A stretch of 63,747 bases of DNA, filler included, from Sphacelaria rigidula (GCA_964200075.2; 7 parts of 7 records of this genome joined end to end with filler, not necessarily neighbours in it); one strand, 5' to 3'; shown: positions 14,886 to 63,738, numbered from the whole stretch's first letter. The notes: a model not told the origin generated them from the letters alone. Program-made: numbers and translations.

Positions 14886-15404
14886 GGACACTTTCTACGA
14901 TAGCCCCCCCCCTTCCTCAACCAGCCCAAAAATGGCCCGAAAAAAATGGTCATACAGCGCCCGGTGATTGGGTTCAGGCTGCTACAAGCGGCTCATGTGG
15001 GCGACATTGGTGAGAACGAACCCAAGCGTGGAAATTCCCAGCTGCTCGTTGTGCTTGGCCTTTTCTATTTCGATTTACGTGAAGAGTTTGCGTCCTGAAA
15101 CCAGGCACTTTTGGGGGGGGCGTACTCATTTGTTGCTTGCCTCAGCCGTTTGACCATTAACCACGCATCCCTTTCCAGATGGAGCACCGTTCCTTATCCG
15201 AATAGAGCCACCTTCAACATTCCGGCGCTCATTACGTTTGTTCCATACATTTTTTCACAACACATTTTGCATGTCTCATCCCCGTCCTGTTTCGCCGTCT
15301 GTGGCCACTACTATCTATCTCCTAGTATAGTCATCGTTTTCTCCCTACTGTCTAGTGCACCATTGTTTTTTTATTTGGGGGGGAAGGTATCGTCGAAAGT
15401 GTCC
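14886..15404. mobile_element. MITE family B, copy carrying a LINE fragment
   Basis: TIR GGACACTTTCTACGATA / TATCGTCGAAAGTGTCC. Body matches the empty copy at 44219-44462. Confidence 0.75.
15121..15362 (-). mobile_element. LINE 3' fragment (C-tract-associated family)
   Basis: Encodes a degenerate ORF2 C-terminus ending ASNK*. Flanked by TTTG7-8 on both sides. Confidence 0.8.
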
Positions 15405-16189
15405 CGACCTCCCCAAAACTCTTTTAGAGGATGTCTAGCCTTCCGTTCCCCCAAAAGGTGTGTGCGATAAGATATTTTTGCCTCGATTTTGGGATGACAA
15501 AAAGAACGCTTTTTGGCCCAAAAATTGCGCTTTCGCACATATTCTTTGGGGGAACGGAAGTCCGAACACCCCCCAAAATATTTTCAGGTTTGTCGTGGCT
15601 GAAGGTCAGGGAAAGCACTGCTTTTGAGTTGAATCTCACTTTTTTGTTCAATCCCAACATTTTGGAGAACCCGCTGTCAGAAGAAGAAACAAAGCAATGG
15701 CAAAACAAAACAAAAACAGAAGAAATAGCCGGCCCCTGCAACATGGCTTGGATGGAAAAAGTCTTGCGCAAGAACCGCATGCGTACCCAACCGTTAAAAA
15801 ACACACCGGTGGGAACAGATGAGGGCTCATCTATTTCAACCTCACTTTTTTGGGTATGAAGCTCTCATTCACTGCCCATGCGGAAGCGAGGCACCACGAG
15901 CAACGCTACTGTAGGAATGCACTTTTTGCTCAAAATCTTGTCTGGTTCGGGAGCTCCTAACAATTCTAGATGCACAAGAATAGAGGTCAAGGCGTTCCCG
16001 TTTGAAAATTCATTCGGGACATCCCTCGCACATTGGGATAGTAATCCTGGCGAATACTCTTACATATTTCATAAAGTCGAGTTTTGGATGAGATAAAGGG
16101 CCCCTAACAATTCTAACCCCGGAAAATATTTGTGCACCCCTACCGTAGCATATCTCCACACTGCTACTTACATACACACCGGTGGGAGA

Positions 16190-16270
16190 CGTGCTCTCAT
16201 CTGTTGCTTGCCTTAGTCGAGTCGTTTGACCGTTGACCACGAATGTATATATCCTTTCGATACAGAGCAT
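16190..16270 (-). mobile_element. LINE 3' fragment, short
   Basis: Same 3' sequence, with CACACCGGT duplicated on both flanks. Confidence 0.65.
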
Positions 16271-17153
16271 GCACACCGGTAGAGGAAAGAAAACACATAA
16301 GAGAGAGAGAGGGCGGGAAGAGACGAGAGAGAACGGAGAGATCCTTGTACGTGTGAATTAAATACATGCGTCAGTTCTATTGTAGACCCTGATATTGCTG
16401 TAATACCAGTAAATTGGGGAGGGGTGATCCGTCGATACTTTCACGTCTGATAGCATTCCTTAACCCTTTTGGAACCGTTGGTGGAGAAATAACGATTTTT
16501 AATTGACGTTTTCTTCTTAGGCAAGATATAGTTGTTTTTTTATACAAGTGTTGGTGATGCAGCCCACCAGAACGGTGCACTATTCCAAGTTTAAGCATAC
16601 TAATGTGATAGATTCGTGCACTGAACTCGAAGTGACGTTTTCCCGGTGACGAATGCTTTTGCATATTATGGGAGTTCGTACCTTTTTTCGCGAGTTCCGA
16701 AAGGGTCATATATATATGTGTGTGTATATGTTCCTGTGACAAAGAAACGCGAGATTATTTCCATCTAAAAAATATTGTGGTTTCAAAACTAACGAATGAA
16801 CATACAAACACGACACGCCCTCTGACCGATTGGCAAATTAAGACATGGATATAAACACTCGATAACTTCGGGTTGTTGCCCTTTTTTTTTCTTTCAATCT
16901 TTATAACTTTCTTCCTGGAAGTTCCGCGTCGTTTTACGCCCTGAAAAAGAGTTAGGCGGATTTTAATCACTTGGAATGCTTCGCTGTACTTGTCGAGACG
17001 GTTCCAGCACACGTGTAATATTTCATCTTCGACGATGAGGTTGAACATTAAAATGAGTTTTCAACTCCAAAACAGTGCTTCCCCTGACCTGAAGTGATGA
17101 CAAATGACTTTCATACGGACGACCTTATTCTCCCCGCCCCCCTTGAAACTATT

Positions 17154-17249
17154 CGGAAGTGTCTCTATTAGGAGTAGGAACGGTGCTCCGTCTCTAAAGG
17201 GGTGCGTGGTCAACGGTCAAACGACTAAGGCAAGCAGCAAATGAGTACG
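17154..17249 (+). mobile_element. LINE 3' fragment with 17-bp TSD
   Basis: CCCCCCTTGAAACTATT at 17137-17153 and 17252-17268. Confidence 0.85.
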
Positions 17250-17732
17250 CCCCCCCCTTGAAACTATTTCTGGGGTTCCCCGTCTGCCGTTCCCTAAAAG
17301 AGCTCATAACAGACCTTTTGAGATGTATCCACTTCTTCTAATCCTCACACTTGAGGCCCAGCGAGTGAGGCCTGATATCGATAAACGGGCAATATTTCGG
17401 GAGTCCTGTGAGGACCATCCCAAGGATGACGTGACCACACATGGTGTTTTCAGGCTGAAAGTTGTTAGTCAGGAAATTTGCTCCACATTGATAGCAGCTG
17501 TTTGATCAACTTGAACTCCGTAGTTCCCGATGACATCGTCACTGCTGCTGAGGAAATAACAAAAAAAAAGTTTTTTGAGTCTTTCCTTCCGCCAGGTGGT
17601 ATACCACTGATCAAAATCTCCCGCAACAGGGGCGTTCTATTCCACCAAGCTTGTCTTGATGTTTGATGTCGAGTTTCAGTTGTTTGACCCACACTTCGAG
17701 GATCAGCCCCCCAAACATGCAGGGCTGTGTGT

Positions 17733-17966
17733 GAGTCATGCTACGATAGGGAGGGAGGGCGGGTGTTCGATTCCGCGAAAAAATGGGCTTTTAGGTGCCT
17801 CAGACGACCTACCACACTCGCGGTGCGCTTATATTCGGGTGAAAGCGGTGTCAATCAATATGAATGAGCGTTATACATCGGAAGAAAGCCCGTTCGAACA
17901 ACCGCTGCTGCTATTAACGACGATTGCAAGCAGATTTTTGTGGAATAAGACGGCCCAAAAATACAA
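17733..17966. mobile_element. MITE family A, partial copy
   Basis: Left TIR GAGTCATGCTACGATAGGG plus shared body. Confidence 0.7.
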
Positions 17967-17973
17967 TGTATAA

Positions 17974-18244: not shown

Positions 18245-19347
18245 CGTGATGATTTGTCCTAACCGTGCAATGTTTTCGTGAGACTGAGGGTAAAGGATAC
18301 GATTGGGAGTGAGGAGCGGCGAGGCCCCATACACTTTCTGTAGTAGCTTGCCACTGAAGCCCTTGCTATCCCTGAGTAGGATATCGACGCATAGCTGTAA
18401 GCACACGCTAGTGTGACGGGCAAAGAAACCACACACACGCACTGAAAAAATGGTCAAGTTGAAGCGAATAATAGAAGCTACTCTCAATCAATGCTCTACC
18501 CTCAATCTCACATTGCTCCATGCGGTGTTCAAATGGTGAGACACCCATGAGGCATCGTGACCCGTGGCTGTCTATGGAAGTGCCGATGTCGGAAAATGAA
18601 GTAACTCATTCGAGGTCGTGATCCGTACGCAACATAATTAGTACGCTTCGGGCGGAAGACAGTCTTAGCAGGATGCAACTCACCCTTCATGCGACTTGCC
18701 GAACACATCACGGCGCTTCTCGCTTGGTGATTGATTTCGAGACTGGTCCGGCGAAAACCTGGCGTGCTCCTTCCCCGCTTTGTAGGGATGCGAGGTCAAC
18801 GATCTTATGACTGGCATGCACAATCATGAGTTTACGAGTATACCCCCTACCGCATCTTCTCTCCTCCCCTATCCATCCGGCGTGTTTTGTCTTTTACCCG
18901 GGTTTGAAATCTCTGCAAAATTTGGACGAACTGCTTCATATTCTGCATACGTGGTCCATGAAGTTTTGGTGTGTTCGACGTGTGTGTCCAACAGTTTGTT
19001 GGGCAGGCCGCTGCGTTGTTTAGGTTTTTCAGAATCAGATGTACATCGAAAGTATGTCATTGTGTGTATCACCAGGTTCTTTGGAGGTAAAAGCCAAGGT
19101 CAACATTTGCTCCGCACTCAGAAACATCACTAGGTTCTCGGAAAGCATCACCGTTATCCTCTCACGTCTGATACTGCTTACTGCAGACAGTCAGTCCGGT
19201 GTACACAACGGCCATGGTGTTTTTTTTTGTTTCACTTTTTCGGGGAAGAAAGTGTCCGCGCGGCTCGGACAGTGTACATACACCGTACAAGTACACTGAA
19301 GTTCACCTGCAAACTTTTTTGTTTTTCGACTTTTTTCGATTGCACAG

Positions 19348-19470: not shown

Positions 19471-20274
19471 GCAAGGCTTCTTGGGGGAGGGGGAGAGGGA
19501 TTGGAGGTCTCACAAAAGAAGCTGTCACCCAAAGGCAGTGTAGAACAAACAGCTTCAGTGCTTAGCGCGTTGATGTTTCAACACACGCACGTTATTTCAG
19601 CGCACAAACACCACTGTGACTTCACCAACCCCTCCCTCACGAAACTGTGATTTTGTGATTTGAACTCTGGCTCGCTTTGCTACTCTCCTACTTGAGCCTT
19701 CTCCTGTAAGAGGAAAGGTCGGATGGGCCCTGGTATGTTGTAAACCCCGGGATGGGGGATGGGGGATGTCGTGCATTTGCAGCATGTTCAATATCTGTGT
19801 ATAGTCTGTGCGGCACTCTGTACACAAGCTCAGATGGAAGCTCCACAGTAACTCTTCGAAGAAACATCGGAAATAGTGCCCATGTACCCATCGGCACGCG
19901 TGCACACGGACGCGAGACATACATGGTGCCACCAGGTGAATACGTTGTGGCCCCCCTGTACAGTAGATTTTGTTTTGTATCAGAATCACGGAATTCGATA
20001 TTTCGCTTCGTTGCCGAGTGTACCGGAATGTTTGCACTTGAAAGACTTACTTCGAGATTGTTTTCATCACCCCCTCTGTTATTTCATGTGCGTGACAATG
20101 TGGATCTCTCTCCGCGCTTTTTTCTTCTCCCAACTGGATTTCAATCTACTCTGGGCACGTTGTGCTGTTCAGCAGCCATCTCCTCTCACCTCTTCTTTCC
20201 TACCTGCCTGCATTTTGTTCAACCTGACCTTTAGTCTGACTTTTACTCTTGATAAACGGCCGAGTGCATTGCAG

Positions 20275-21951
20275 GGGAGCTCGGGAACGACTGTAAAAAG
20301 CATGGTGCCCATGCGCGACCGTCTGTGGCACCGCCTGTTCAAGCGGGGTGGGGACTACTTTATGTCCCCACGGTACGCTAAAAACCCACGCCCGATCCTG
20401 TTCGTCGTGGACTCGGAAAAAGACGCCTATATTCTGCGCCCCCTGTTCCGGCAGCTGGCAGCATTATCTCTCTCCGCACCACCCTCGGCATCCCCCAGAG
20501 ACGAAGCACAAGGTGACGGTCGCCGAGAGGATGATGCCTCGACGGCGGTAAGCCTTACAAGCGGCCGACCGCCGCGCGTGGTTACTACGGGAAGGTGGGG
20601 AAATACCGCCAGCTGCCCCACTGTGGCCTCAGCCATCGGATTGAAGGAGGGGGAATCCGCTGCCGAAGAGCTATGCGATCCGGACGTTTTCCAGTCGGCC
20701 TGGCAGCTCAACGCCGGACGGCAGTTTCCTAGGGATGAGATGGGTCGCGGTGGCAGTAGCGGTGGACGCGATCATACTCTCATGTTGGATCTTTCTAGTG
20801 GAATTTTGGGCGCGGTTCAGACCATATCGCCGCTGGCAATAGTGTCTGTCGGAGGGACGGGCGTGGCGGCCGGGGTCGGGGGCGAGGGCGGCGGCGGTGC
20901 TGCGATGGACGAGGCGTTGGCGGCGGTGAGTGCGCAAAGCGGGGTGCCCGTGGTGCGGTTGGAGAGGTTGCCGGCTTCGAGCAATGCGTTGAGATGGCTA
21001 GCGTGGCTATCGCCCGAGGCGTTCAGGTATTGGCACAGAGCACGCATCGACATTCTCGTGGTGTATGACCCTTCCCCTTCCTCTTCCGTCACCGGTGTCA
21101 ATGATGTTGACGGCGATCGTGATGAACGAAATGTCGGCGGCAGCGGCGACAGCGGATTCAGACAAGGTCACACAGAAGCGCAGCTTGCCTCCCTCCTCGA
21201 CAGCCTCGAGGATGCCAACTACTTCGGTGACAGCGTCAGCTTAACCGTGGCTGTAGGCGGCGGGGCTCGAGTTCCCAAGAGCGTCGGCGAGCTCGCGTGG
21301 CATCGCGGTCCCAAGTTTGTCCGCGAGTCGCTGCATGCCGTCGGCAGCGCTGGTAGGGAGGAAGAACGTCGAGGAGTGGCCGCGGCGGTGACTGCGTCGG
21401 TGCGAGAAGTAAAACACTCTGGGCAACTGTCCAGCGATGCGCTCGCGGTGCTAGCGCTGCAATCGTGGGTGCCTCGAGATAGCGACAACTTCGTCGTGGT
21501 ACTCGAGGCCAGCTCTGTTGTTAGCGAATATTTTTACTCATGGCTCAAGGCGGCCGTTTTGGAAACGAGGTACAGCAGTCCGTCCGTGTCGCAGGCCGAC
21601 AAAGGGGACGCGCGGGAAGGTGACGAAAGGGTCCACGGGGTGTGTTTGCAGAGCGGCGCGGTACCTGGGGCTTGGCTCCTCGCACCCAAGGTCTGGCGGT
21701 CCGCTCAGGCCAGGTGCTTTGGTGGGAACACAGGTGACAGCGCCGGCGCAGGAGGTGCAGAAGAGGTGGAGGCATCGTGTACGCGCCACGCGTTGATACC
21801 CTCCCTCGAGAGATCCTTGTGCCCAGCGATGCAAGGGTCTTTGGTCTCGCGGACATGCGCTGACGGAAAGCCAAGACAAGAGAGTGAAAAACTGGTAGTA
21901 GATGACGAACTGGTGGTAGCGCTTGCGAGGAAAGCGCTCTTTGATAAATGA
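20275..21951 (+). CDS. Glycosyltransferase-fold protein (At5g60700-like), terminal exon
   Basis: Motifs LLDSLEDANYFGDSVSL, WHRGPK and QSWVPRDSDNFVVVLE...VSEYFYSWLK. GC-rich coding style begins after the TTGCAG acceptor at 20274. The upstream part of the 691-aa ORF is probably intron. Confidence 0.8.
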   Translation, partial: GSSGTTVKSMVPMRDRLWHRLFKRGGDYFMSPRYAKNPRPILFVVDSEKDAYILRPLFRQLAALSLSAPPSASPRDEAQGDGRREDDASTAVSLTSGRPPRVVTTGRWGNTASCPTVASAIGLKEGESAAEELCDPDVFQSAWQLNAGRQFPRDEMGRGGSSGGRDHTLMLDLSSGILGAVQTISPLAIVSVGGTGVAAGVGGEGGGGAAMDEALAAVSAQSGVPVVRLERLPASSNALRWLAWLSPEAFRYWHRARIDILVVYDPSPSSSVTGVNDVDGDRDERNVGGSGDSGFRQGHTEAQLASLLDSLEDANYFGDSVSLTVAVGGGARVPKSVGELAWHRGPKFVRESLHAVGSAGREEERRGVAAAVTASVREVKHSGQLSSDALAVLALQSWVPRDSDNFVVVLEASSVVSEYFYSWLKAAVLETRYSSPSVSQADKGDAREGDERVHGVCLQSGAVPGAWLLAPKVWRSAQARCFGGNTGDSAGAGGAEEVEASCTRHALIPSLERSLCPAMQGSLVSRTCADGKPRQESEKLVVDDELVVALARKALFDK

Positions 21952-25437: not shown

Positions 25438-25872
25438 AAACACGGGGTTTTACAAATTGGGGATGGATCTTCTAGTGGGGATCAGAGCCCGGAGAATTAA
25501 AATGTTCGTACGCACACCAAATCTTCGAAGTATACTTCCATTTCTTCACTTGCCGGTAGCTATTGACAACTAGTACACGCCGTACACATTTGGATTTCGA
25601 TAACCGAAATGTCGAGGTCCTACGTGAAAAACCATTTTGGGGGGATTCTAGGTGTCCGATCGGACGCCAATACTGGTTCTTCACCTAGGACCCCGACATT
25701 TCGGTTATCGAGATCCAAATTTGTATGGTGTGTAGAAGCTGTCAATAGCTACCAGCAAGTGAAGAAATGGAAGCATACTTCAAAGGTTCGGTGTAGATAC
25801 GAAGATTTTAATTTTCTCCGTTTTTTTTTTCCCAATAAATGATCCATCCCCAATTTGTAGAATCCCGTGTTT
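25438..25872. mobile_element. 435-bp foldback element (MITE-like)
   Basis: TIR AAACACGGGGTTTTACAAATTGGGGATGGATC. Interior also inverted to the centre. Confidence 0.8.
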
Positions 25873-36486: not shown

Positions 36487-36556
36487 TTGCCTAGCTTACG
36501 TAGTGAGTGGCGTGTTTTACAGCGTCATCGCCAAGCGACGCCAACCCCATCGGGGG
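36487..36556. repeat. High-copy repeat at contig starts (also 45635-45790 and 54728-54812)
   Basis: TTGCCTAGCTTACG...CCAACCCCATCGGGGGT leading into G-runs. Confidence 0.7.
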
Positions 36557-36568
36557 TAGGGGGGGGGG

Positions 36569-41817: not shown

Positions 41818-42595
41818 CATGTTTTTTCGAACAGGTGACAGGGGGCCAGGAGTTTCCCTTGCGCGTGCGAACAGGTTGATAGAGATCCAGGATTTCCCAT
41901 GTGTTTTCGAACGGTTAACAGGGGAGCCAGGATTTCCCATGTGTTTTCGAACAGGTTGACAGGGGGCCAGGAGTTTCTCTTGTGCGTGCGAACAGGTTGG
42001 CAGAGATCCAGGACTTTCTATATGTTTTCGAACAGGTTGATAGGGGAGCTAGGATTTCCCATGTGTTTTCGAACAGGTTGACAGGGAGCCAGGAGTTTTC
42101 CATGCGCGTGTGAACACGTTGACAGGGCGCCAGGACTCCCCATGGGTTTTCGAACAGGTTGACAGGGGAGCCAGGAGTTTCCCTTGTGCGTGCGAACAAG
42201 TTGACAGAGATCCAGGATTTACCATGTGTTTTCGAGCAGGTTGACAGGGATCCAGAATTTCCCATATGCTTTCGAACAGGTTGACAGGGGAGCTAGGATT
42301 TCCCATCCTATTCGAACAGGTTGACAGGAATCCAGGATTCCCCATATGTTTTCGAACAGGTTGACAGGGGGCCAGGAGTTTCCCATGTGTTTTCGAGCAG
42401 GTTGACAGGGATCCAGGATTTCCCATGTGTTTTCGAGCAGGTTGACAGGGAGCCAGAATTTCCCATACGTTTTCGAACAGGTTGACAGGGGGGCCAGGAG
42501 TTTTCCATGCTGTCCAAACAGGTTGACAAGCCGCCACGATTTTCCCATTCTGTCCGAACAGGTTGACATGGAGTCAGAATTCCCTTGGGAGTCCA
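41818..42595. repeat. Minisatellite, 40-42-bp unit x ~19
   Basis: Consensus CGAACAGGTTGACAGGGGAGCCAGGATTTCCCATGTGTTTT. Confidence 0.95.
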
Positions 42596-43043: not shown

Positions 43044-43255
43044 TTTCGAGCCGGAGCACCGTTCCTACTCCTAATAGAGACACCTCCAACATTTTTGCGC
43101 TCAATACGTTTCTTCAGCAGCTCACTACGTTTTTTCCATACATTACACAACAACCTTTTACATATCTTATCCCCGTTCTGTTTCGCCGTCTCTGGCCACC
43201 ATCTATCTCCTAGTGTAAATATGGTCTTCTCCCCTTACTATCTACTGCATCAAAC
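43044..43255 (-). mobile_element. LINE 3'-region fragment lacking the extreme terminus
   Basis: Encodes LGDRWWPETAKQ...LCNVWKKR...NVGGVSIRSRNGAP. Confidence 0.75.
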
Positions 43256-44218
43256 GATTGCATACCACCTTTGTTCACGTCCCGGATTTCCCCCTCTGGC
43301 ACGTCCCGTTCCGTCCCGTTCGGGTAGGGGGGGGAGTGGTTCGTAGGTGTGCGGCTTTTTTTATCTCGTGCACCTCCGACATCCCTTCAAATCGTGAGAC
43401 AGTCGCGTACATATCAGGACGCAAACGGCGGTAAAAGGCGGGGGGAAAGAGGACTACGGGACCACAGTCTTTATCGCCCCCCATGCAGCGCTGTTCTCAA
43501 CTCCAGCTTGTAGCCGAAAGTCTGTGAAGCACCCGTCATGATCTTTTCGGTCGTGTCTCCTGGATCCCGAACCAGCGATCTTCCCGGCGTAGTGTCCGTG
43601 GGCAGCGCGGATGGGAGCAGTGTCAGCCCCACGTACACCTCGCCGCTGGTATCATACTGCCTGCAAAGGTGACATATGAGCACACGCGAGGTCGGGGTCA
43701 TTGGTGTAAGCTACATCTGGCACATCACATATAAGTCGCGAGTAATCAAATCCGATCCAGTACCTGCACGTCGGCCAAAGACGCGGACTAAGGACCGCGA
43801 TACCTCGAGCGAGTATTTGGTGCAGGATCCACACGTTTGGATACCCTAGTAGGTGGTAGCAACTGTCAAGGTCGTCTCGAAAATCAACCTCGACAGGCAT
43901 TGCCCCCTACACCCTGTGCAGGGTCCACCGTTGTACAGGGTTAATAAAACCTGACTCCTTGCACAAGATCTCATACTGTGCAGGGTCCGCACATTTGGAT
44001 ACCCTAGTAGGTGGTAGCACCTGCCAGGGTCGTCTCGAAAATCAATCTTGACAGGGTGCCGTCCCTTCGACCCTGCAGTTGTAGCCGAATGTCAACCCGT
44101 GAAAATTTTTCCGAAAATCCGGGGATAGGCAAATTGAAGCCCCGAATTGCCTTTTTTCCCTCTTTGCTGCCGGAAATTGATGAAATGTGGTGCATTGTGA
44201 TGCGGAAAGGTTTGTGTC

Positions 44219-44462
44219 GACACTTTCTACGATAGCCCCCCCCCCAAAACCAGCCAAAAGTGTCAGGAAAAACGTGGCCATACAGAGCCTAATGTTTGGG
44301 TTCAGGCTGCATGAAGCGACTCATATTGGCGACATTGGCTAGAACGAACCCAAACGTGGGAATTCCGAGCTGCTCGTTATGCTCGGCTTTTCCCGTTTCG
44401 ATTTACGTGAAGATTTTGCCTCCCAAAACCATGCCCTTCTGGGGGGGGGGCTAGAAAGTGTC
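44219..44462. mobile_element. MITE family B, empty copy
   Basis: GACACTTTCTACGATAGCCCC...GGGGCTAGAAAGTGTC. Confidence 0.75.
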
Positions 44463-45607: not shown

Positions 45608-46838
45608 AAGCGCGCAAAAAAAACGATAACCCGGTTGCCTAGCTTACGCAGTGAGTGGCTTGTTTTATGGCGCCATCGCCAACCGACGCCAACCCCATCG
45701 GGGGTCCGCCCCTACAGAGCCGGGACGGAGCACACCGGGATTTCGCCGGACCAGGCTGGCCGCCGAAGGGGGGGGTGGGGGGGGGGGGCATGGGATCTGA
45801 GATTGTTATTGGGCACCCTTGGGAGAACTAGTATGTACTCTATTTGGTGGTCCTCTCTCGATTGTTTCACAAGTTTCATTTATGGCGACCTCGTGACACA
45901 GAGACGACGTGCATTTCTTTTCCTCTTGCTGAGGGGAGCATGTAGCATGATTGAAGCGAAGCGACATGCTACAAAATGAAAAGACACTAGGTAGTACTCC
46001 CGTCTTGCTACGCTTACCGCGAGGTTGGAGCTGTGAGACTTCATTCTTCCACCCAGAACACCCTCACGCCCAAAACGCTCTGCGCGATCCCTCGTCGTCC
46101 CATTTGTCCACGTTGAGGTGAACACATGGTAGGCACGCCTTGTCCGCGAGGTATCGCAGCCTTCCCGTCTTAGCCGCCTTTGTCACCGAGTACGTCTCGA
46201 GGAGTACATGTTACACCCCTTTCGCACTGAGATGCGGCGTCGGTTCTGACCTGCCTTCGGGGTTCATCATTATCGCTGCGTGGTAGTGGCGCACGTCCTC
46301 GTCCTCGACATATGTGGACGGCAGGAACCTCTTCACCAGAACGCGTGCTTACATCACGTACGTCAGTTCGACACAGAGAGATGTAATTGGAAGAGAAAGC
46401 GCTAATGTCATATTCGAGAAGAAACGGGAAATGGTGCGGCTACCAAGCTGCTACATCAAATTAAAAGCGGGGGCCTATTCCACGAAAACGGCACGAGGCG
46501 ATGACAATTTTGCACTGTACTGCAGTAAGGTGCGGTACGACTGTATCAAGTACTACCATCGCTGTACACTACAGTGTATCTGGAACATACATACTGCGGT
46601 ATCACCCCAGTGCACAGAGCACTTCAACGTACCCAGCAGCTGCAGCAGGGCTGCTATAAACCGCACCGTACATTCGTACTCCAGCACTCGTGCCCACCAC
46701 AGTACAGTACAATAAATTGCACACATAGTTCTCATCGATACCACTTACACTCGTTCGAGTATACAAACACAGATTCGTGAAATTTGAATTTTGAATTTTT
46801 GAATTTTTGAATTTGAAATCTGTGCACAGGCACACTAC

Positions 46839-47553: not shown

Positions 47554-48616
47554 GTCAGCAACAGACAGTATTTTTGGTTGAATCACAAGCAGTACGTCTA
47601 CATTTCATATACACATACCTATGTCGTCCCATCTTGAAGAAGTTGGAACTCGTGGCAGCTCCCCGCCTGTCGCAAGCCTCTGCCTTGGTTGCCTTGGTTG
47701 ACTGCAGCCCGTGCGTGTTGAGATGCCTGATCCAGTTGGTGTTGGCCCCACTCCACGTCCTCACTTCCAACTCCTCTTCGCACTCGGCATTGGCGAGACA
47801 AATCCTCGCCTCCTGCCGTGTGTCGACGTGAATGGCCTTGACCCCCGCGAACCAAACCAGCGATGTCGCGCCAAGAGGTATATCTACCTTGAGGTACCCG
47901 TGTGGGGGCGAAAACTCCTGAACACGTTGCCACACATCCTCAGGCACGCCGGTCGGACAAAGTACCGTCTTCACCTTGCCTGGCGGCGTCGAACCTTTTG
48001 GACGGGACGCGCTGCCTCTAAGCCCACCTGCTTTGGCCTTCGGTCCAGTTTCCTTTTTTTTGTTTCCCGCAGCAGCGGATTCGGCTGCGCTCGACGCGGG
48101 GACCCAATCGGGAGCAGCCCCTTGGCGTAAAAACGAGTCGATACTTACCTGCGCTGAGCGGGCGCGTAAAGGCTTGTTGGTGCCATCGCCGTCCACCTCC
48201 TGGATGACCACCTCCACAACCTCATCGTCACCACACAATGTACTGTTGGGCGTCGTCTTTTCCGACGTCGTCAGCTCACCCGCGGTTGCTGGTTCGCCAG
48301 CATCTACACTTGTAGAAGGGGGGTTGCTCGTTGGTCGGCACCAAACGGCACTGCTATTGAATGTGAATGTACACATACTTGTCTACTCGACAGATATTCT
48401 ACGCCGCTTCAGGTTAAGTTTGGTCTCTGTGTGTGTGACGGGGCGGGGGGGTGGGGGGCAGGAGCTTGGATAAAATGAAACAAGCTTTGGAGCTTGACGC
48501 CTGCACATGTGCAGATATGCAAATGAACTTGAAGATTCTTGGTTCAAGATCGTCAAAGAACTCATTACAGTTATTTGCTCGTCGGAATGTTGACTCCTCC
48601 ACTGGAGTCCTTCATC

Positions 48617-48887
48617 ACGAGCAATGACTCGAGTGCTCGCTCTCTTAATTCGTTTCCACAACGAGAAATGACTCGAGTGCTCGCCCTCTCAATTTGTTTC
48701 CACAACGAGCAATGACTCGAGTGCTCCCCCTGATAATTTTTTCCACAACGAGCAATGACTCGAGTGCTCGCCCCATTGGAGTTTTCCACAAGCAATGACT
48801 CGAGTGCTCGCCTTATTCATTTTGATGGCCAACGATCAGCCCAACGAGTGCGAGTGCCACGAGTCACGCTAGTGCTCGTCCGACGTA
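48617..48887. repeat. Subterminal repeat array (~43-bp period x5) and probable 5' end of hAT element
   Basis: TTCCACAACGAGCAATGACTCGAGTGCTCGC repeated. Terminus reads TACGTCGGACGAGCAC on the minus strand. Confidence 0.75.
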
Positions 48888-50057: not shown

Positions 50058-50779
50058 TTCACATGTCGGACAGATCAAATCCGTGTAGCTCGAGCTAGCT
50101 CTTATTCTGCGTAGCTCCATTATGAGCTATGAGAGCTACATGAGCTACGCATGGTTGCCCTGGGTACGCTACGACAGCTGCATGAGCTGCAAATGTTTGC
50201 CCTACGTGAGCTACCAAACCGTAGCTCATTAGCTCATTTTCGTCCTGAGTGACCTATAGGAGCTGTATGAGCTACACACGTTTGCCATAGGTGAGCCACC
50301 AAGCCGTAGATTATCAGCTCATATTCGTCCTGGGTGAGCTATGAGAGCTGCATGAGCTACGCATGTTTACCCTGGATAAGGTATGAGAGATACATGAACT
50401 GCACATGTTTGCCCTGGATGAGCTATGAGACATGCATGAACGGCACATGTTTGCCTTGGGTAAGCTATTGAGTGAGCTATGAAATATGCATGAGCTACAC
50501 ATGTTTGCCCGGGATAAGCTATGAAAGCTACATGAGCTACACATGTTTGTCCTACGTGAGCTACCAACCCGTAGCTCATCAGCTCATAATCGTCCTGGGT
50601 GAGCTTTGAGAGCTGCATGAGCTACGCATGTTTGTCCTGGGCGAGCTGCCAACCCGTAGCTCATCAGCTCTTATTCGTCCTAGGTGAGCTATCGGACGTA
50701 GCTCACACATGTACATGTTCGACTACAAGTGAACTACGGCCAGCAGATGAGCTAGCTCATGACCTGTCCGACGTGTGAA
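50058..50779. mobile_element. Non-autonomous TIR element filled with GAGCTA-motif repeats
   Basis: TIR TTCACATGTCGGACAGATCA / TGACCTGTCCGACGTGTGAA. Interior is a degenerate ~44-bp array. Confidence 0.7.
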
Positions 50780-52571: not shown

Positions 52572-52849
52572 CAACGTTTGGTCAGATATGGGTGCGTTTC
52601 GAAAACTTCACCCTTTGCAGGCGTCTGCTGGTTTACATCAAGGACTGTAAAGGGAAGGATATTTACGGTGACGACCATGGTCATGTCGGCATCCTCTAGA
52701 ATGTTTGCACCAACGTTTGGTCAGATATGGGTGCGCTTCGAAACCTTCACCCTTTTCAGGCGTCTGCTGGTTTACATCAAGGACTGTAAAGGGAAGGATC
52801 TTTACGGTGACTATTATGGTCATGTCGGCGTCATCTAGAATGTGTACAC
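52572..52849. repeat. 139-bp tandem duplication
   Basis: CAACGTTTGGTCAGATATGGGTGCG at 52572 and 52711. Confidence 0.9.
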
Positions 52850-53882
52850 CGATCGTGTACAGTCGTGGTATACTCATCCAACAGATGTGCAATGCACTTT
52901 ACTGGAAGCCTCGATGTGTCTCCCAACAGTTTTTCCCTCCGCTCAACTTCCGGCGTTTTCCTGACATGGTACTTTGACCCTGGCGACAACAAGCATGTAC
53001 TACCATGCACACCATGTAGACGCGATACGAGCCGTGAAGTCCAAGAGAGAAGTGACTAATACAAACATCAAGTTACCCAACATATGAACTCACTCGTGGT
53101 TAAAGTGGAAGCCAGAGCAATACATTACGTTTGTTTCCGACGATACCCGATAAGACGAAAGGGATGAAGACATCAATGCATAGGAGCATATGCGCGCGTG
53201 TGTTGAGATTCGGCAGATATGTACACTTTTCTGCGCGTGTGCACATACCAGGTTCGGTATCAATATTGATATCGTTTGCTTTCGACGGTCGCGTGTACCG
53301 CTGTTGAGAACAAAAGTCACCCCTCTTCTATTTATAGCAGTGAAATAGAACAGGACCAAATCAGGCCGGTAGTTGGGAACCTGGTCAGGCATCTTTGAGG
53401 TCAGCACGATTTCCCCCTACTTGCAGGTATATACGATCCTCTCCAACGTTGTCAAATATTCTGGCACTGTAGAGCAGCTTCATGAGGTTGATCAGGTGTT
53501 CTACAGGCCCTGAGTCCTATGATACTGCACGTATCATACCCGGTGAATCACGACTTGGTATTATGCGTTCAAAGGTTTCTATTGTTTTCGCCTCTTGTAC
53601 TCTATCGATGCTGTATATATGCTTCAGATCCATATTGCCGTATTGGTGAGAAAGTCCCATTTGCTTGGAATACCTCGGGCACTAGGGTTGTGGTCACGAG
53701 ATCAGTTCATGTAAAGTGTCATTTTAGTAAGCACGGGTAGCTCCTGTCCCTCCCGTTCATGTGCGATGATGCTGTTTTCTTCAACGCTGTTTCTCGTTAG
53801 CTAACATCAGAACCCTCTGGTGTGATGCCAACTGTGCTACCGCGAGCAGTTACCCCTCAACAAAAATCACGCGACAGAGCTG

Positions 53883-54584
53883 ATGGCCAGCGTGGCGAGG
53901 AGAGAGTGCATACACGAGGGCTGCCCGAAGCGACCATCGTATGGGGTACCGGGCTACAAGGCGGAGTTCTGCTCGAAGCATGCCAGGGTGGGAATGGTGG
54001 ATGTGGTGAACAAGGTATGCGGCGGCGAAGGCTGCTCGAAGAAGCCATCATATGGTGTGGCGGGTAGCAAGAAGGCGGAGTTCTGCTCGAAGCATGCCGT
54101 GGCGTGGATGGTGAATGTGGTGAACAAGGTATGCGGCGGCGAAGGCTGCTCGAAGAAGCCATCATATGGTGTGGCGGGTAGCAAGAAGGCGGAGTTCTGC
54201 TCTCAGCATGCCGGGGCGTGGATGGTGGATGTGGTGAACAAGAAATGCAGCGAGGAGAGCTGCGTCAAGCATCCATCGTATGGTGTAGCAGGAAGCAAGA
54301 AGGCGGAGTTCTGCTCTCAGCATGCCAGGGCGGGAATGGTGGATGTGGTGAACAAGAAATGCAGCGATGAGAGCTGCCTCAAGCATCCATCGTATGGTGT
54401 AGCAGGAAGCAAGAAGGCGGAGTTCTGCTCTCAGCATGCCAAGGCGGGAATGGTGAATGTGGTGAAAAAACACTGCAGCGACGAGAGCTGCCTCAAGCAT
54501 CCATCGTATGGTGTAGCAGGAAGCAAGAAGGCGGAGTTCTGCTCTCAGCATGCCAGGGCGGGAATGGTTCATGTGGTGAAATAA
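53883..54584 (+). CDS. EsV-1-7 cysteine-repeat protein (six 37-38-aa repeats; likely premature stop)
   Basis: C-x4-C-x-K-x-PSYG...AEFCS-x-HA-x3-MV-x-VV repeats. A seventh repeat (KCSKEGC) begins right after the TAA. Confidence 0.88.
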   Translation: MASVARRECIHEGCPKRPSYGVPGYKAEFCSKHARVGMVDVVNKVCGGEGCSKKPSYGVAGSKKAEFCSKHAVAWMVNVVNKVCGGEGCSKKPSYGVAGSKKAEFCSQHAGAWMVDVVNKKCSEESCVKHPSYGVAGSKKAEFCSQHARAGMVDVVNKKCSDESCLKHPSYGVAGSKKAEFCSQHAKAGMVNVVKKHCSDESCLKHPSYGVAGSKKAEFCSQHARAGMVHVVK

Positions 54585-54727: not shown

Positions 54728-54812
54728 CATCGGGGGTCCGCCCCTGCAAGGCCGGGAGGGGGCGCGCCGGGTTCTGGCCGGACGGGGGTGGCGGATGGGG
54801 GGGGGGGGGGGG

Positions 54813-54878
54813 CGTACTCATCGGTGGCTTGCCTTAGTTGTTTGACCATCGACCACGCATCCCTTTCAAGAAGGAGCA
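54813..54878 (-). mobile_element. LINE 3' fragment, short
   Basis: G-runs on both sides, same terminal sequence. Confidence 0.7.
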
Positions 54879-57523: not shown

Positions 57524-57526
<3 letters not shown>

Positions 57527-57591: not shown

Positions 57592-57593
<2 letters not shown>

Positions 57594-57867: not shown

Positions 57868-57969
57868 GAGTCATGCCACGATAGGGGGGGGGGGGGGGAA
57901 ATACTAGGGTTTCTATTTCCCTTACCAAATTTGTTTGAGTGAAAATAAGGTGTGTTTACTNNNNNNNAG

Positions 57970-58002
<33 letters not shown>

Positions 58003-58624
58003 GGGGGGAGGGGCGGGGGGGGGGGGGGGGGGGGGGGGGATTTTGGGCCACTTCTTCCACTTCAAATTTTCGTTGAAAGCAACAACGGTTGTTTCAGCGC
58101 GCTTGTGACCGATAGATTACACTCATTAGTACCGATTGACTTCCTTTTTTACTCAAATACAAGTGCACCGCGAGTGTGTTAGATCGTCTGACACACCTGT
58201 GAGCCCCCCTTTTTTCGTGGAAGCAAATACCCCCCCCCCCCATAGTGGCGAAGCAATAGAGAGCGGAAGTCATATAATGGCAGAATGTGAACACTACAAG
58301 GAGGAACGGGAAGTGGTAGAGGGGGAAATGCGGGACGTGAACGAAGGTGGCATGGAATTGTTTGATGCAATAGACAGTAGGGAGAAAACGATGGCTATAC
58401 TAGAAGATAGATGGTGGCCACAGACGGCGAAACAGGACGGAGAAAAGATAGGTCAAAGTTTTGTGTAATGTATGGAAGAAACGTTATGAGCGCCGGAATA
58501 TTGAAGGTGTCTCTACTGGGAGTAGGAACGGTGCTCTGTCTCGAAAGGGATCCGTGGTCAATGGTCAAACAACTACGGCAAGCAACAAATGAGTACACCT
58601 CCCTTCCCTATCGTAGCATAACTC
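57868..58624. mobile_element. MITE family A (reverse orientation, spans an N gap) with LINE insertion
   Basis: GAGTCATGCCACGATAGGG...CCCTATCGTAGCATAACTC. AAGTAA on both outer flanks. Confidence 0.65.
58242..58597 (+). mobile_element. Longest LINE 3' fragment (ORF2 C-terminus)
   Basis: GEAIESGSHIMAECEHYKEER...LEDRWWPQTAKQ, second half of a CCHC-type finger. Ends AAATGAGTAC. C-tracts on both sides. Confidence 0.82.
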
Positions 58625-59305
58625 CAAGTAATTTCCAGAAGAATCACTACTCGTTCCGACCCATAGGTCGTTTTGGCATACCGATTGCGATGCGACAAGA
58701 CCGACTTCTACCCCCACCCATCCTGTCCCTTCGAGGGGTGGCGTAGGTTGACAACAAACGCCGTGGAACACCATAACCCTCACTGCGGAAGCTGTGGGGA
58801 ACCAGGTTTTACCGGTTTTATTATCTCTCGCGTTGCGTTTCCCTGCGGTAACCGTGTGGTGGTCGACTTGTATCATGCTGTGCGGAGGACATCAACTCCG
58901 CGCAAAAGGGGGATAATCGTACTACGTAGTGTTTAGTAATATGGTGAGACACAGACCCGTTCGGCAGCGTCTAACTCGCGGCTGTTTCTTATTTTATTAT
59001 TTTTATTTATTTACTAATATTTTATTTGTCGCACTCTGAACCCCTCCTCTTCCTCGGGACGACCCATCTCTCCCTCCGTCTCTAGAAGTGGCAATACCGG
59101 AAAATCAAGGAACTCATTCGAGGTTGTCATCCACATGCAAGATAATTAGTATGCTGTGGGTCGGGCAACCTTAGCAGGGATGCAGGTGCCTCCTGATGCG
59201 CTTGGTGATTGTGAACCCGGTCCGGCGAACACCCGGCGTCGTCCGTCCCGGTTCCACGGGGACTACGGTATGCAAGATCATCGGTACACCTACGCCACCC
59301 ACGCT

Positions 59306-59372
59306 GTGCTCCGTCTCGAACGGGATGCGTGTTCAACGGTCAAACGACTACTATAAGGCAAGCAACAAGTGG
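59306..59372 (+). mobile_element. LINE 3' fragment, short, diverged
   Basis: GTGCTCCGTCTCGAACGGGATGCGTG...GGCAAGCAACAA. Confidence 0.6.
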
Positions 59373-62128
59373 GGACACTTGTCGACATTTCGGTTTTTGC
59401 GGTCCTGGGAGTGCACGGGTGGTCAGTGGTAAGTCACATCTGTCCTTATCCCGTCCCATATATGAGCACCCTTTCGGGGCATCATAACATCACGCGGCGA
59501 TGGGGAGAAAGTGACACCTACCGATATTTCGGTAGGCGGCTAAAGAAGGACATGGTGGTCGGTAGTAAAGAGCACTTATCGATATTTCGGTTTGCGGTCA
59601 TAGAACGGTACGGGTGGAGAGTAGAAAGTCACACCTGTGTCTTTATTCCGAGCAACCTTTAGGGGGCAAAAAAACGGCACAAGGTCATGGGGAGTGAGTG
59701 ACGTCTGTCATGACTTCGGTTTGCGACGAAAAAGGACGAGGTGGTCTGTAGCAACACCCGTCATAAATTTTGCCTAAAAATGCGGAGCAGCCGTTTGAGG
59801 CAAGAAACGGCATGGGGGTCGGTAGTAAGTAAAACCCGTTGATATTTCGGTGAACGACTGAAAAGGACGCCGTGGACGGTATCAACATCTGTCATGATTG
59901 AGAGTTTTGGGCAACTTTTTTTTTTTTTTTGCATTTCAGAGAGCAAATATCTCAGGATCATAGTGTAACGAAGAACCATTTCCCCTTCCGTCAAATGTCT
60001 TATCCTATCTCCTTAGCGTTTTTTCGATCACGTGTTCTTTTTTTTTGTTTGTTATTCTGCACTCTAATCCTTAGATATTGGCACTCCGAAATGACAGCAA
60101 AGCATTTCCCGAAACTTTATTTATCAACTCCTTCGAGCAAAACATATGTCGTTACGCCGTTCAACATCGAAGAACCTTCTGCGGCATGAGAAAAGTGCGG
60201 TGGGGTCGGCAGTAGGTAACATCCATCGATATCCCCCTCAATACTAAGTGTTATTGGAATTACTCAAGCACACAGACCGGCAGTGAAATCGGGATCGGCC
60301 AAAAGAGAAAATTAGGAGCTTTTCACTCGAGCCTCGAATTTTCTGAGACCCCCAACGTGCACAAACGAGCTCGGTTTCTCCATGGAAGTGGACACGGCGA
60401 GAAATGATCGCAGAGAGAAGTAAAATCAGTGAAAGATAGCACGCAGAACCAAAACAAAATCTGAATATAGTCATGGCATAGCCGGATTTCCTTCCCACGG
60501 CCAGAGCGGAAGCCGATACCAGGCGATGGGCCGAACTGGCCGCATCTGTCGTGTACTTGATTGATTTTATTTTGACTGAATGTCGCACATAAACTGACCC
60601 TCCCAGAGATAGACGTACCCAAAAAAAGACAAAACCGAAACACTCGCTCAAGAGAGAGGAGGAGGAACAGAAAAAGTCGAACAGAACGACATAGTAGACT
60701 GACCAAGACGTACAAAAAAAAAGGAACAAAAAACTCAACAAAAGAAAAGGGCAGAAAGAAATCGCCGAGATCTAAAACAAAAAGGGAAAAGAGCAAAAAA
60801 GAAGAGAAAAAAAAAAAGCGAGAAAAAGACGTACTGCTTCGATCATTATAAATTGCTCACTCGAACAATTCTTCATGGATTCTCTCTTTTATTCGTAAGC
60901 CGTTCAAATTGATTGATTAATTAATTAAGTATCTGACATGAACTGATGGCAACAATCCAGCCCGTGGTCAGGAGCAGCAGAAAAAAAAAAAAAGGAGGAA
61001 AGAAACAGATAAAGACAGAAGCATGAATGACATCCATTTATTCGGCCACTGTTCAGATCATACCCATTCCCGAGTGTGAGGGTTCCGCCATGACTAAATC
61101 TTCGTTCCTCGTGTACCGCACGCAAAACGAGGGACGCGGACAACGAGGAACCCACTTGACCGTCCGCAAAGAATAATATCTTCGAGTGCTCTGAACAGAC
61201 AGTAGTCTACCCACTGTTACAGCAAGCATCCATCTTGCTACGAGCAACGAACGCACGATAATGAAGATAACGATAGTTCAGTACACTGTGCTCGCTCTGC
61301 CGTACCTTCGATAAGCAGGTGTGGAATACCACAAGTCTTGGAGGCAGCTCTCATCATCCCAGCTCTAAAAGAGACGAAGGCGACAACATGGAACAATGTT
61401 TTTCACCCGTGCTACTGATTTCTTGTAATCGTATTTGATCGATTGCTGCACTTTAACTGACCCCCCAGTGTTCCAGCCGTGGTCATCTCTGATCATTTTC
61501 CAATATTCCCGCTTCTATGAGGAAGGCATATCGCTAGGGTAGACAGAGACCTATGGATGAGACTGTCGTTCGAGATGTCTTCCAGATGCCGAAGGAACTC
61601 CGAACCTGGCGATGATTTCCTCTTGTGTAATGTAGGCGACGAGGGGGCCAGACTTAGAAGAAGGGATGAACCGTGAAGAGGATACACCCTTCTCCGCGGG
61701 GGATGTTTGACCAACCTGATATATCGGGCTCTCCCTGGCATCACCCCGAGTAATCTAGTATCGTTGGCTTTACAGGGTCCCGGTAATCTGGTCCTTTCGG
61801 ACCGTTCATACATTGTACCTGCATGCGCTGGGTCTTCATACATGTGTGTGTGCGTGTGTGTGTGTGTGTGTGTGGCATTAAATATTTGATGTGTCAAACG
61901 CAACAAGGTGACTTCGACAGTTCACAACTTCGCCCTTAAAAAAAAGGAAACCCGCGGACAGAAAGACACAGTCATCCTCCATCCACCTCCGGCCACAACA
62001 CAAAAAAAAGCAGAACAAGCCTCTCAGCAGGCAAAACCCAACAAAAAACGAGGGAACAAAAAAGGGTACAGAGCCTCTCTCATCGGCACAACAACAAAAA
62101 CAAAAAAAATGGAAAATGACTTTGACAC

Positions 62129-62275
62129 CTGAGTGTTTCTCGTCTTGATGAGCATGCCGGGAAACCCGAGGACCAGGACCGCCTCCGGCGACAGGTGCCG
62201 CATGGACCCTCGGAGAACGTCCCGTAACACTTCCGACATTTCACCTTCAGTCTTCTTCGCCTTCTTAGGCTTCGC
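62129..62275 (-). CDS. Internal exon, probable Fanconi anaemia group D2 protein
   Basis: AKPKKAKKTEGEMSEVLRDVLRGSMRHLSPEAVLVLGFPGMLIKTRNTQ. CAG/GT, phase 0. Confidence 0.55.
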
Positions 62276-62319
62276 CTGTGAGAGACAAGGAGACGTCCGC
62301 GCCGGAGGGGGGGGGGGGA

Positions 62320-62382
62320 CGTACTCATTTGTCGCTTGCCTTCGTCGTTTGACCACTGACCACCCATCCCTTTCGAGACGGA
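62320..62382 (-). mobile_element. LINE 3' fragment with TSD
   Basis: GTCCGCGCCGG plus G-run at 62295 and 62383. Confidence 0.8.
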
Positions 62383-62500
62383 GTCCGCGCCGGGGGGAGG
62401 GGCGGGAATGGGGAAGACAGTTGTAGGGGGGAGGGAACACGGAAAATAACTAATGATCTCTGTGGAATAAACAGAGTCAACAAATCCACGGGGGTGCAAT

Positions 62501-62980
62501 GAGCCATGCTACGATAGGGGGGCGGGGGGGTACTCATTTGTTGCTTGCCGTAGTCGTTTGACCATTGACCACGCATACATTTCGAGACGGAGCACCGTTC
62601 CTACTGCTTATAGAGACACCTCCAACATTCCGCCGCTCATTACGTTTCTTCCATTGATTGCACAACAACCCTGTGACATATCTTATCCCCGTCCTGTTTC
62701 GCCGTCTGTGGTCATCATCTATCTCCTAGTATGGGGGGGAGGGTGTTCGGTTCCACGAAATAATGTGGTCATAGATGCGTCAAATGACCTGAAACACTCG
62801 CGGTGCGCTTGTGTCTGGGTACAAGCGGTGTAAATCAGAAGCATGCATGAGCGTTATTGATTGGGAGCAAGGGCGTTCGCACTACTCCTGGCTGGTTTCA
62901 ACGGCGATTGGAGTGGAATTTCGTGGAAGAAAACGGCCCAAAATACCCCTCCCCCTCCCTCCCCTATCGTAGCATGACTC
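62501..62980. mobile_element. MITE family A, full copy, with LINE fragment at 62530-62732
   Basis: TIR GAGCCATGCTACGATAGGGG / CCCCTATCGTAGCATGACTC. Confidence 0.8.
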
Positions 62981-63672
62981 TATTTTGGAATGTACGCTCT
63001 AGGCCATCAGTGAGTGGACGGATGAGCTACAGTACAGAACGAAGCGCAAGCAATCAGCCACATGCTCAAAGGTACAACCCATCCGTCGACTCGCTCCCTT
63101 CCTTCCGACAAAACATAGCTTTGTTTGAACCCTGCTGCTCCCCCGACCACCAAACACCTACCCCAACTCGTACGTGAAGAATGTTTGATATTTCGTCGGG
63201 GCACGCACGGCTCATCGCAAAACCGTCAAGAGAGATTCATTCCCCCGCATTGGTTAAATAGTGGCCAGGCTTTGACCTACTTCGCACATCATGTTCCCCT
63301 CTCTAGGATGAAGGCACCGATTGTAAGGCCTGGGATTTTTTTCCAGGCAAAAAACTCTCCCTCACAAGTGAGCCCTGTAGGTACGAGAAATACAAATTTA
63401 ACGAAGAACATAAAAATGATCTTTCAACTTTTGCTCAAAACCTGTACTGTGAGTTTTCGCCGAAAAAAAGTGCTCATTAATATTATATTCATCTCTCTGT
63501 CCATCTGTCTGCGTGTCGTGCGATGGAAATATTTCAGGCAAACAAAGACAGATTCACCCCGCTTGAAGAGTAATCTACAAAGCGAGACAGAACGAAGCAG
63601 GCAAGATGGTAGAACAAAGAAGAACACGAAAAAAAAAAAAATGAGATATATGACAAGAAAAAAAGTGGGGGG

Positions 63673-63738
63673 CGTACTCATTTGTTGCTTGCCTTAGTCA
63701 TTTGACCATTGACCACGCATCCCTTTCGAGACGAAGCA
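63673..63738 (-). mobile_element. LINE 3' fragment, short
   Basis: G6 followed by CGTACTCATTTGTTGCTTGCC. Confidence 0.75.

Follow-up and report, generated by a model that had tools for sequence, protein, structure and literature searches.

C/G homopolymer runs as apparent landing sites of a 5′-truncated LINE in the brown alga Sphacelaria rigidula

In a 63,747-nucleotide stretch of Sphacelaria rigidula DNA (GCA_964200075.2; hereafter the window), short fragments of a long interspersed nuclear element (LINE) repeatedly end at a run of C residues, and several of them lie within miniature inverted-repeat transposable elements (MITEs). Does such a run belong to the element, as a tail in the place of poly(A), or to the DNA that received the insertion? 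The window consists of seven pieces of ~9 kb each with N spacers between them and has a GC content of ~49%. The sample of LINE copies is small and comes from this one window; copies are named by their first coordinate (c58242, c15121 and so on). The best explanation of the whole, to which we give a probability of about 60%, is that these copies are dead, heavily 5′-truncated remains of a LINE with an apurinic/apyrimidinic-type (APE-type) endonuclease that integrates at C/G runs.

A blastn search with the longest copy (c58242, 356 bp, 58242-58597, plus strand) as the query recovered 11 places, exactly those that a preliminary description of the window had listed as 5′-truncated fragments. The copies are 48-356 bp long, 74-91% identical to the query and, when aligned, have differing 5′ ends and, in ten of the eleven, a common 3′ end that reads ...GGCAAGCAACAAATGAGTAC(G). 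As a single set, the list needs some amendment. In c43044 (43044-43312, minus strand, query positions 62-305) the last ~50 nt, and the 3′ end with them, are lost; c59306 is the 3′ module of a ~300-bp element; and a twelfth, diverged module at ~18769-18840 had been left out. The copies were also said to occupy four unlinked contigs. They lie on three pieces, or on four if the 7-N gap at 57961 is taken as a further boundary.

When a full-length relative (see below) was used as a tblastn query, only its last ~115 residues matched anywhere in the window, and no reverse transcriptase (RT) or endonuclease (EN) part of the LINE was found across the window by this search. Hence, all copies are severe 5′ truncations of an element of several kilobases. 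A tblastn extension of c15121 to 15466 was treated as spurious, as blastn gives it no backing. The open reading frame (ORF) is open in one frame through c43044; c58242, which encodes the CCHC-region end of the ORF with one frameshift, differs from it by a 2-nt deletion. Because the database proteins end in ...VVNGQ(T/M)TKASNK, the stop codon lies 5 nt from the 3′ end of the element (TGA-GTACG). The earlier reading of the ORF end as KASNK-TGA is thus borne out by both the frame of c43044 and the database C-termini. No poly(A) or microsatellite tail was found at the 3′ ends of the window copies, and a Pfam search with a 74-aa peptide from the window gave no match.

Beyond the conserved 3′ end, seven of the ten intact copies meet a pure C-run of 6-16 residues within 2 nt, as had been noted before. 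The chance of such a 3′ run at a random oriented position of the window is 0.0017, and the probability of at least seven in ten is ~5e-18. For instance, C10 follows c36569 (48 bp, 36569-36617, blastn 36570-36617, minus strand) and C6 follows c63673 (65 bp, 63673-63738, blastn 63674-63738, minus strand). The 3′ end of c58242 meets an interrupted C-rich tract and not a pure run. On the 5′ side, a C6 or longer run ends within 15 nt of the junction in seven of nine readable flanks (P ~1e-13); this count sets aside c63673, whose flank is limited to 9 nt by the end of the window, and c36569, whose flank is interrupted by a 1.4-kb element with terminal inverted repeats (TIRs). In c43044, a C8 is located 14 nt upstream of the 5′ end. 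In each of the eight copies with a run or C-rich tract directly at the 3′ end, the sense strand of the LINE carries the C residues. Most copies are therefore found at one kind of target and in one orientation (7-8/10 of the 3′ junctions at C-runs, 8/8 C-sense).

Target-site duplications (TSDs) were sought by comparing 35 nt on each side of eight copies, with a null distribution from 2929 random pairs. Exact TSDs of 9-17 nt are present in four of the eight (the null probability of 9 nt or more is 0.015), and three of these four begin with the C-run. The first belongs to c17154 (~96 bp, 17154-17249, blastn 17150-17248, plus strand) and is a 17-nt CCCCCCTTGAAACTATT at 17137-17153 and 17252-17268. 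The second flanks c15121 (241 bp, 15121-15362, blastn 15122-15362, minus strand), which has ~11 extra nt at its 5′ junction; it reads TTTGGGGGGG at 15110-15119 and 15374-15383, and is also listed as CCCCCCCAAA. The third, at c62320 (63 bp, 62320-62383, blastn 62321-62383, minus strand), consists of the run and CCGGCGCGGA, that is, a G-run with TCCGCGCCGG, at 62296-62305 and 62384-62393. The TSDs of c17154 and c62320 were the two named in the preliminary description, and both are exact. The fourth accompanies the old, diverged module c16190 (74% identity, 16186-16269, blastn 16196-16269, minus strand), which has no pure C-run: CACACCGGT at 16175-16183 and 16272-16280, listed as ACCGGTGTG, comes after a decayed C-rich stretch. 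In c54813 and c62530 the run alone is duplicated (C7 and C6, respectively). The same comparison showed no run common to both flanks of c58242 and no TSD for c59306.

The geometry of these duplications is constant: a run or C-rich stretch directly after the LINE 3′ end, then 0-12 nt of unique sequence. Read in terms of target-primed reverse transcription, it would mean that the G strand is nicked first, in the G-run or at its edge, and the C strand second, at a variable distance beyond the run. The same duplications bear on the idea that (C)n is an encoded or added tail only, with no target preference, the 5′ runs being due to chance or to the tails of neighbours. A (C)n 3′ end alone would account for the 3′ junctions, and tandem copies do exist. 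However, three TSDs (c15121, c17154 and c62320) contain the run together with unique sequence, and as the unique part separates the run from the element in c17154 and c62320, the 5′ run of these two copies is not an added tail.

The MITEs provide a view of the target in paralogous copies with and without an insert. Family 1 has four copies in the window, with the layout TIR (GAGTCATGCTACGATAG), G-rich tract, ~200 bp, C-rich tract, inverted TIR. The copy at 57873-58619 (minus strand, TIRs 57873-57884 and 58608-58619) holds c58242 in one of its homopolymer tracts, with C12 directly 5′ of the LINE and the C-rich tract and MITE TIR on its 3′ side. The copy at 62506-62975 (plus strand, TIRs 62506-62517 and 62964-62975) holds c62530 (203 bp, 62530-62732, minus strand) in the G-tract beside its left TIR, whereas its right tract (62945-62963, CCCCTCCCCCTCCCTCCCC) is uninterrupted, so the unfilled far end is also C-rich. 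These two MITE copies are only ~69% identical to each other, and their LINE inserts, 356 and 203 bp long, occupy the same tract in the same orientation, in keeping with the earlier observation. The same tract is uninterrupted in the other two copies. One of them, at 17738-17960 (plus strand), is truncated at its far end; the G-rich tract after its TIR (17738-17749), at 17750-17770, corresponds to the one that holds c58242 and c62530 in their MITE copies, but is unfilled. The other, at 63-308 (minus strand; G24 63-86, C11 279-289, TIR 297-308), has no LINE insert, and its G24 side adjoins GC-rich sequence resembling a repeat described below (repeat E).

A second family leads to a similar picture. 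In the MITE at 14887-15399 (plus strand), GACACTTTCTACGATAG and C9 make up the left end, and c15121 lies within the right G-run, between G8 and G7 followed by TATCGTCGAAAG. The copy at 44219-44462 (plus strand) has C10 at 44236-44245 and G10 at 44441-44450 and no insert, and is the paralogous empty site for c15121. The LINE faces outward in family 1 but inward in family 2, so that recognition appears to be of the run and not of the MITE. Furthermore, since sister MITE copies carry the tract uninterrupted at the same position, the C/G runs appear to serve as the target and to be more than a tail. Together with the 5′ flanks, seven of nine of which have runs, this largely refutes the tail without target preference, which we consider very improbable. 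A lack of run enrichment at empty sites, which had been named beforehand as a refutation, is not what these paralogous sites show: both the sister MITE copies and the 5′ flanks have runs. The core of the preliminary description, namely a LINE that lands in C/G tracts in one orientation, with TSDs that start with the run and repeated use of the subterminal tract of MITEs, is supported.

Could the runs be sequencing or assembly artefacts? The N gap and the long A/G stretch at 57961-58039 do suggest local assembly trouble. However, the runs are internal, are found at matching positions of diverged MITE copies and are included in exact TSDs, and the same feature is recorded in a near-complete Ectocarpus assembly (PMC12477816). 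We find this explanation hardly credible.

A less trivial objection is that the association is passive: homopolymer tracts of G/C would be fragile and prone to nicking, and thus open to any retroelement. C or G runs of at least 6 residues are ~3 times commoner in the window than its base composition predicts (72 observed, 22.5 expected), and copies of repeat E also start at C-runs. In the MITE at 57873-58619, the remaining G-run contains a different insert (57899-58014) with a ~30-nt A-run at its end and the 7-N gap. This insert has G-runs on both sides, and no other copy of it is present in the window. Against a passive association stand the strict orientation, with C on the sense strand in 8/8 copies, and the precise 3′ junction. 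In addition, in the Ectocarpus library entries the hallmark is specific to RTE-X, whereas the RTE and CRE elements have (CAA)n and (CA)n, respectively (PMC12477816). We therefore judge passive use of fragile tracts improbable. As a separate observation, 11 of the 40 runs of at least 7 residues touch a LINE junction, and several others are subterminal tracts of MITEs.

How might the run be chosen and kept? In the scheme that we propose, an active LINE with one long ORF, its stop codon 5 nt from the 3′ end, would use (C)n as a tail instead of poly(A). The G-rich strand would be nicked at or in a G-run, the 3′-OH of the G-run would pair with the oligo(C) end of the RNA and prime cDNA synthesis, and the C strand would then be cut 0-12 nt past the run. 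A cut at this distance would leave a TSD composed of the C-run and a few unique bases. Each insertion would thereby be bracketed by two C-runs, both of them fresh targets, giving rise to tandem and nested arrays, and the subterminal G/C tracts of MITEs would supply many further landing sites.

The lengths of the runs are informative in this respect. The 3′ run is longer than the run of the 5′ TSD copy in c17154 (8 vs 6), c15121 (8 vs 7) and c54813 (65 bp, 54813-54878, blastn 54814-54878, minus strand; C16 vs C7), which suggests that additional C residues arrived with the RNA or arose by slippage. These differences, and the (C)n 3′ end scored by the Ectocarpus curators, make the earlier label 'tail-less' doubtful, and with moderate confidence we prefer to say that (C)n acts as a tail that is renewed from the target. 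In its full form this proposal is more tentative, and we hold it at less than even odds: (C)n would not be encoded but taken from the landing run by read-through past GTACG, pairing of oligo(C) with the G-run would pick the target, and the element, an APE-type LINE specific for G/C homopolymers and placed outside Tx1 and R1, would renew itself, create its own landing pads and have MITE tracts as safe havens.

The main rival to this proposal is a model in which the endonuclease alone sets the target. The APE would recognize and nick poly(dG).poly(dC), the RNA would end at GUACG without any tail, and priming would proceed without pairing; this corresponds to the 'tail-less' element of the preliminary description. 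Indeed, the conserved sequence stops at GTAC(G/A), with only target-like sequence beyond. The model does not readily explain why the 3′ run exceeds its 5′ counterpart in the three copies listed above, nor why the Ectocarpus consensus was curated with a (C)n 3′ end in the library entries (PMC12477816). We consider it rather unlikely.

Several observations weigh against the proposed scheme, or against our explanation as a whole. The oligo(C) end of the RNA, the pairing step and the specificity of the endonuclease are all things that we infer, and the oligo(C) tail in particular counts as a weakness. In c58242, the pure C12 stands on the 5′ side, and the 3′ flank is the interrupted MITE tract (CCTCCCTTCCC). 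Had a long C tail been carried in, the opposite arrangement would be expected; under target choice by the endonuclease alone, the 3′ flank would simply be the MITE's own tract. No C-run is present at the 3′ ends of c16190 and c59306, the most diverged copies, of which c59306 belongs to another element, the ~300-bp partner described below. As the insert with the A-run also sits in a MITE G-run, such runs may be generally insertion-prone. The junctions of c36569 and c54813 with repeat E can be read both ways, as the LINE inserted into the run of E or the reverse. Finally, the empty sites (44441-44450, 17750-17770 and 62945-62963) are paralogous MITE copies and not pre-insertion alleles.

The 3′ end of the LINE is also present in shorter elements. 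A ~300-bp element of non-autonomous type (59078-59377, plus strand) resembles the 3′ module of the LINE in its last ~70 nt (59306-59377) and has no C-run after it. A second, diverged copy (18570-18840, plus strand) has its 3′ module at ~18769-18840, followed by C5. In four LINE copies (c16190, c54813, c62320 and c63673), with different flanks, the 5′ ends all fall within 3 nt of one another at ~65 nt from the 3′ end; two of the four have TSDs right at that boundary. The resemblance of both ~300-bp partners to the LINE begins at the same boundary, which agrees with the '60 bp' shared module recorded in the library entries for Ectocarpus (PMC12477816). The ~65-nt unit may represent a discrete mini-template or a stop of the reverse transcriptase. 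A conserved 3′ RNA hairpin is not apparent: for ten copies, RNAalifold gave -4 kcal/mol and no compensatory change among 10 predicted pairs.

Repeat E is GC-rich and ~150 bp long (45635-45790, minus strand), and starts with C12-A-C8 in the LINE sense. Further pieces are found at 36487-36557, 54728-54796 and 1-62, and copies adjoin c36569 and c54813. In the LINE sense it contains GTGCTCCGTC, which is like the start of the LINE 3′ module, and three of the window pieces start inside or beside it. Repeat E may be another non-autonomous element that seeks C-runs, and a relative of the LINE. Rfam and tRNA scans identified no short interspersed nuclear element (SINE) head in either repeat E or the ~300-bp partner. 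The C10 of c36569, compared with a paralogous C5, was considered as proof of a carried-in tail and rejected, as the repeat E copy on its 3′ side, which is shortened at the 5′ end, may itself be a 5′-truncated insert. The 5′ side of c36569 is interrupted by the 1.4-kb TIR element (36617-38039), whose arms (36617-36683/37973-38039 and 36676-36825/37830-37979) are 95-96% complementary; its ORFs (36655-37068 and 37605-38111) have no Pfam match.

What did the complete element look like? A phmmer search with the 74-aa peptide returned 440 clusters, and among the 150 matches listed all were short fragments. Full-length relatives were reached by walking upstream with an alignment of the fragments, and their 3′ ends are judged from protein C-termini. 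P0001, P0151, P0152 and P0156 all stop at ...VVNGQ(T/M)TKASNK. P0152 (1360 aa) and P0156 (1328 aa) each have an endonuclease and an RT in one ORF, with no RNase H match. Both comprise, in this order, ~165 aa with no family match, the APE endonuclease, RVT_1 and a CPCG-x8-H-x4-C (CCHC) motif. RVT_1 is matched with E-values of 1e-31 to 2e-33 in P0152, P0156 and P0151, which have the C-terminus in common with the window copies, and Exo_endo_phos (PF03372) and Exo_endo_phos_2 (PF14529) match residues 170-414 of P0152. In an ESM Atlas search with the N-terminal 165 residues of P0152, the best score, for a hypothetical cluster from bacteria, was 0.83 and did not reach the threshold for a lead; our impression is that this domain looks like an RNA-binding fold. 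In a search of PDB chains, human L1 ORF2p came out on top (E 7e-21) with the R2 protein close behind (9e-20), and as the two are nearly equal, these scores were rejected as a clade assignment.

The database proteins also carry a trace of the C-run. Predicted proteins that read past the LINE 3′ end turn Pro-rich in seven of eight cases, and in eight of nine readable cases in a second search, in the +1 frame. As a C-run encodes Pro in any frame, this continuation is the C-run. A Pro-run just before the start of homology is seen in 10 of 48 matches with upstream sequence, compared with a background of 2.2%; many of the remaining 38 upstream sequences are merely frameshifted homologous sequence. 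P0023 and P0051 have the tandem order element, C-run, element.

The RT region of the full-length relative of the window family is 64% identical to P0170 from Ectocarpus sp. CCAP 1310/34, whose ORF ends in ..RVVNGLTAK. In P0172, P0176-P0180 and P0197 the RT region is only 47-50% identical, yet ..GCVVNG..AMA.. is present at the extreme C-terminus. One possible reason for such conservation of the last codons is a dual constraint, in which these codons would also serve as the 3′ end of the RNA. That the ..VVNG.. codons are kept at this level of RT identity fits recognition of a specific 3′ end and not of a tail, and is a point in favor of target choice by the endonuclease alone.

The preliminary description had left room for the family being undescribed, but both the family and its hallmark are on record, since the Ectocarpus library annotates RTE-X LINEs with '(C)n 3′' and 'C-rich' TSDs. 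In Supplementary Material 3 of the 2025 paper, RTEX-1_Ec32 is a 5867-bp element described as 'single EN-RT ORF; (C)n 3′' with a 'C-rich' TSD, and RTEX-2_Ec32 has '(C)n termini/TSD' (PMC12477816). Among the non-autonomous families entered there, which have their last 60-100 bp in common with the RTEX LINEs, RTEX-N1_Ec32 (607 bp, '60 bp 3′ end 83% RTEX-1/RTEX-2', 'can be present in tandem', TSD 'C-rich') is reported as the most abundant single transposable element (TE) family in Ectocarpus, and RTEX-N2_Ec32 is 188 bp long (PMC12477816). The other LINEs in these entries are RTE with (CAA)n and CRE with (CA)n (PMC12477816). The Saccharina genome paper also lists an RTEX-1.

The window family shows the same hallmarks, namely the (C)n 3′ end, the C-rich TSD and short partners with a common 3′ module. 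Its LINE most likely belongs to the RTE-X clade, although this placement rests on shared hallmarks and one Ectocarpus homologue and not on a phylogeny with reference elements, which counts against it. It is thus probably one more member of an already known RTE-X-type family of brown algae, whose record consists of curation notes. In the main text of the Ectocarpus study, the terms 'C-rich' and 'homopolymer' are absent and target choice, MITE tracts and mechanism are not analysed (PMC12477816). Full-text searches on the targeting of homopolymers or poly-C by elements lacking long terminal repeats, and on RTEX targets, gave no analysis of this behavior. As far as these literature searches reach, the mechanism and the MITE connection are not on record.

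The remainder of the window contains other features. An ORF at 53826-54584 encodes six EsV-1-7 cysteine-rich repeats (Pfam E 9e-102) from a 114-bp tandem array; this repeat family is a hallmark of brown algae and phaeoviruses. A brown-algal origin is indicated by this ORF and also by protein matches from Sphacelaria and Ectocarpus. Tandem arrays with units of ~40, 44, 42 and 139 bp occupy 41830-42584, 48606-48851, 50123-50692 and 52572-52849, respectively. Two foldback-like inverted repeats with short loops, at 1253-1718 (205-nt arms, 87% complementarity) and 25438-25872 (150-nt arms, 85% complementarity), are possibly further MITEs. A 699-codon open frame within 19852-21951 has no Pfam match, and a 418-codon frame at 33958-35214 matches RVT_3 (RNase H-like) with an E-value of 0.001, under the curated cut-off. 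The window as a whole gave no match in scans for Rfam families and tRNAs.

The target choice of LINEs is usually explained by the preference of the endonuclease together with pairing between the poly(A) tail and a T-rich primer. With C/G in the place of A/T, a family of this kind would separate these two contributions in a natural system, and would also exemplify self-confinement to harmless, self-generated sites. The value of the present case is limited by the fact that curators have already recorded the hallmark, and the window evidence is inference from sequence. In Ectocarpus, no single TE families are more abundant than RTE-X elements and their short partners (PMC12477816). With such abundance, the insertion rule of RTE-X would shape the genomes of brown algae, including the excess of G/C runs in them.

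The closest known systems are RTEX-1/2 and RTEX-N1/N2 of Ectocarpus, which are like the window family in having a single EN-RT ORF, a (C)n 3′ end, C-rich TSDs, short partners, tandem copies and a brown-algal host; for RTEX-1/2 this likeness is judged from annotation rows and not from consensus sequence. Togen, specific for (TG)n, and the microsatellite-specific HERO are given as simple-repeat-specific LINE families in a survey (PMC4640811). With such LINEs the window element shares a low-complexity target, a fixed orientation and a 3′ end that merges into the target repeat. Kibi, Koshi, Dong and Waldo are further members of this class. The simple-repeat-specific LINEs target di- to tetranucleotide repeats, whereas the target here is a homopolymer. 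In the same survey, APE-type target-specific families are placed in the Tx1 and R1 clades and most others are RLE-type (PMC4640811). The window LINE is APE-type but, unlike those families, probably RTE-X, the clade to which the published Ectocarpus classification points, and its specificity looks like a strong preference and not a strict one.

L1 has a poly(A) tail and a T-rich nick site. Like the window LINE, it combines an APE with an RT, is subject to 5′ truncation and has variable TSDs, and in both a homopolymer tail is proposed to pair with a complementary primer. The window LINE differs in having C for A, a single ORF and neither a polyadenylation signal nor a 3′ UTR (untranslated region), and the PDB chain comparison does not make it a member of the L1 clade, as R2 scores almost as well. 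Tx1L is a LINE that inserts into a DNA transposon, and the likeness is that copies of the LINE are repeatedly found inside DNA transposon or MITE copies. Transposons as LINE targets are a listed class in the survey (PMC4640811). In contrast to Tx1L, the window LINE strikes MITEs only for their G/C runs, and it uses two unrelated MITE families as well as runs outside MITEs.

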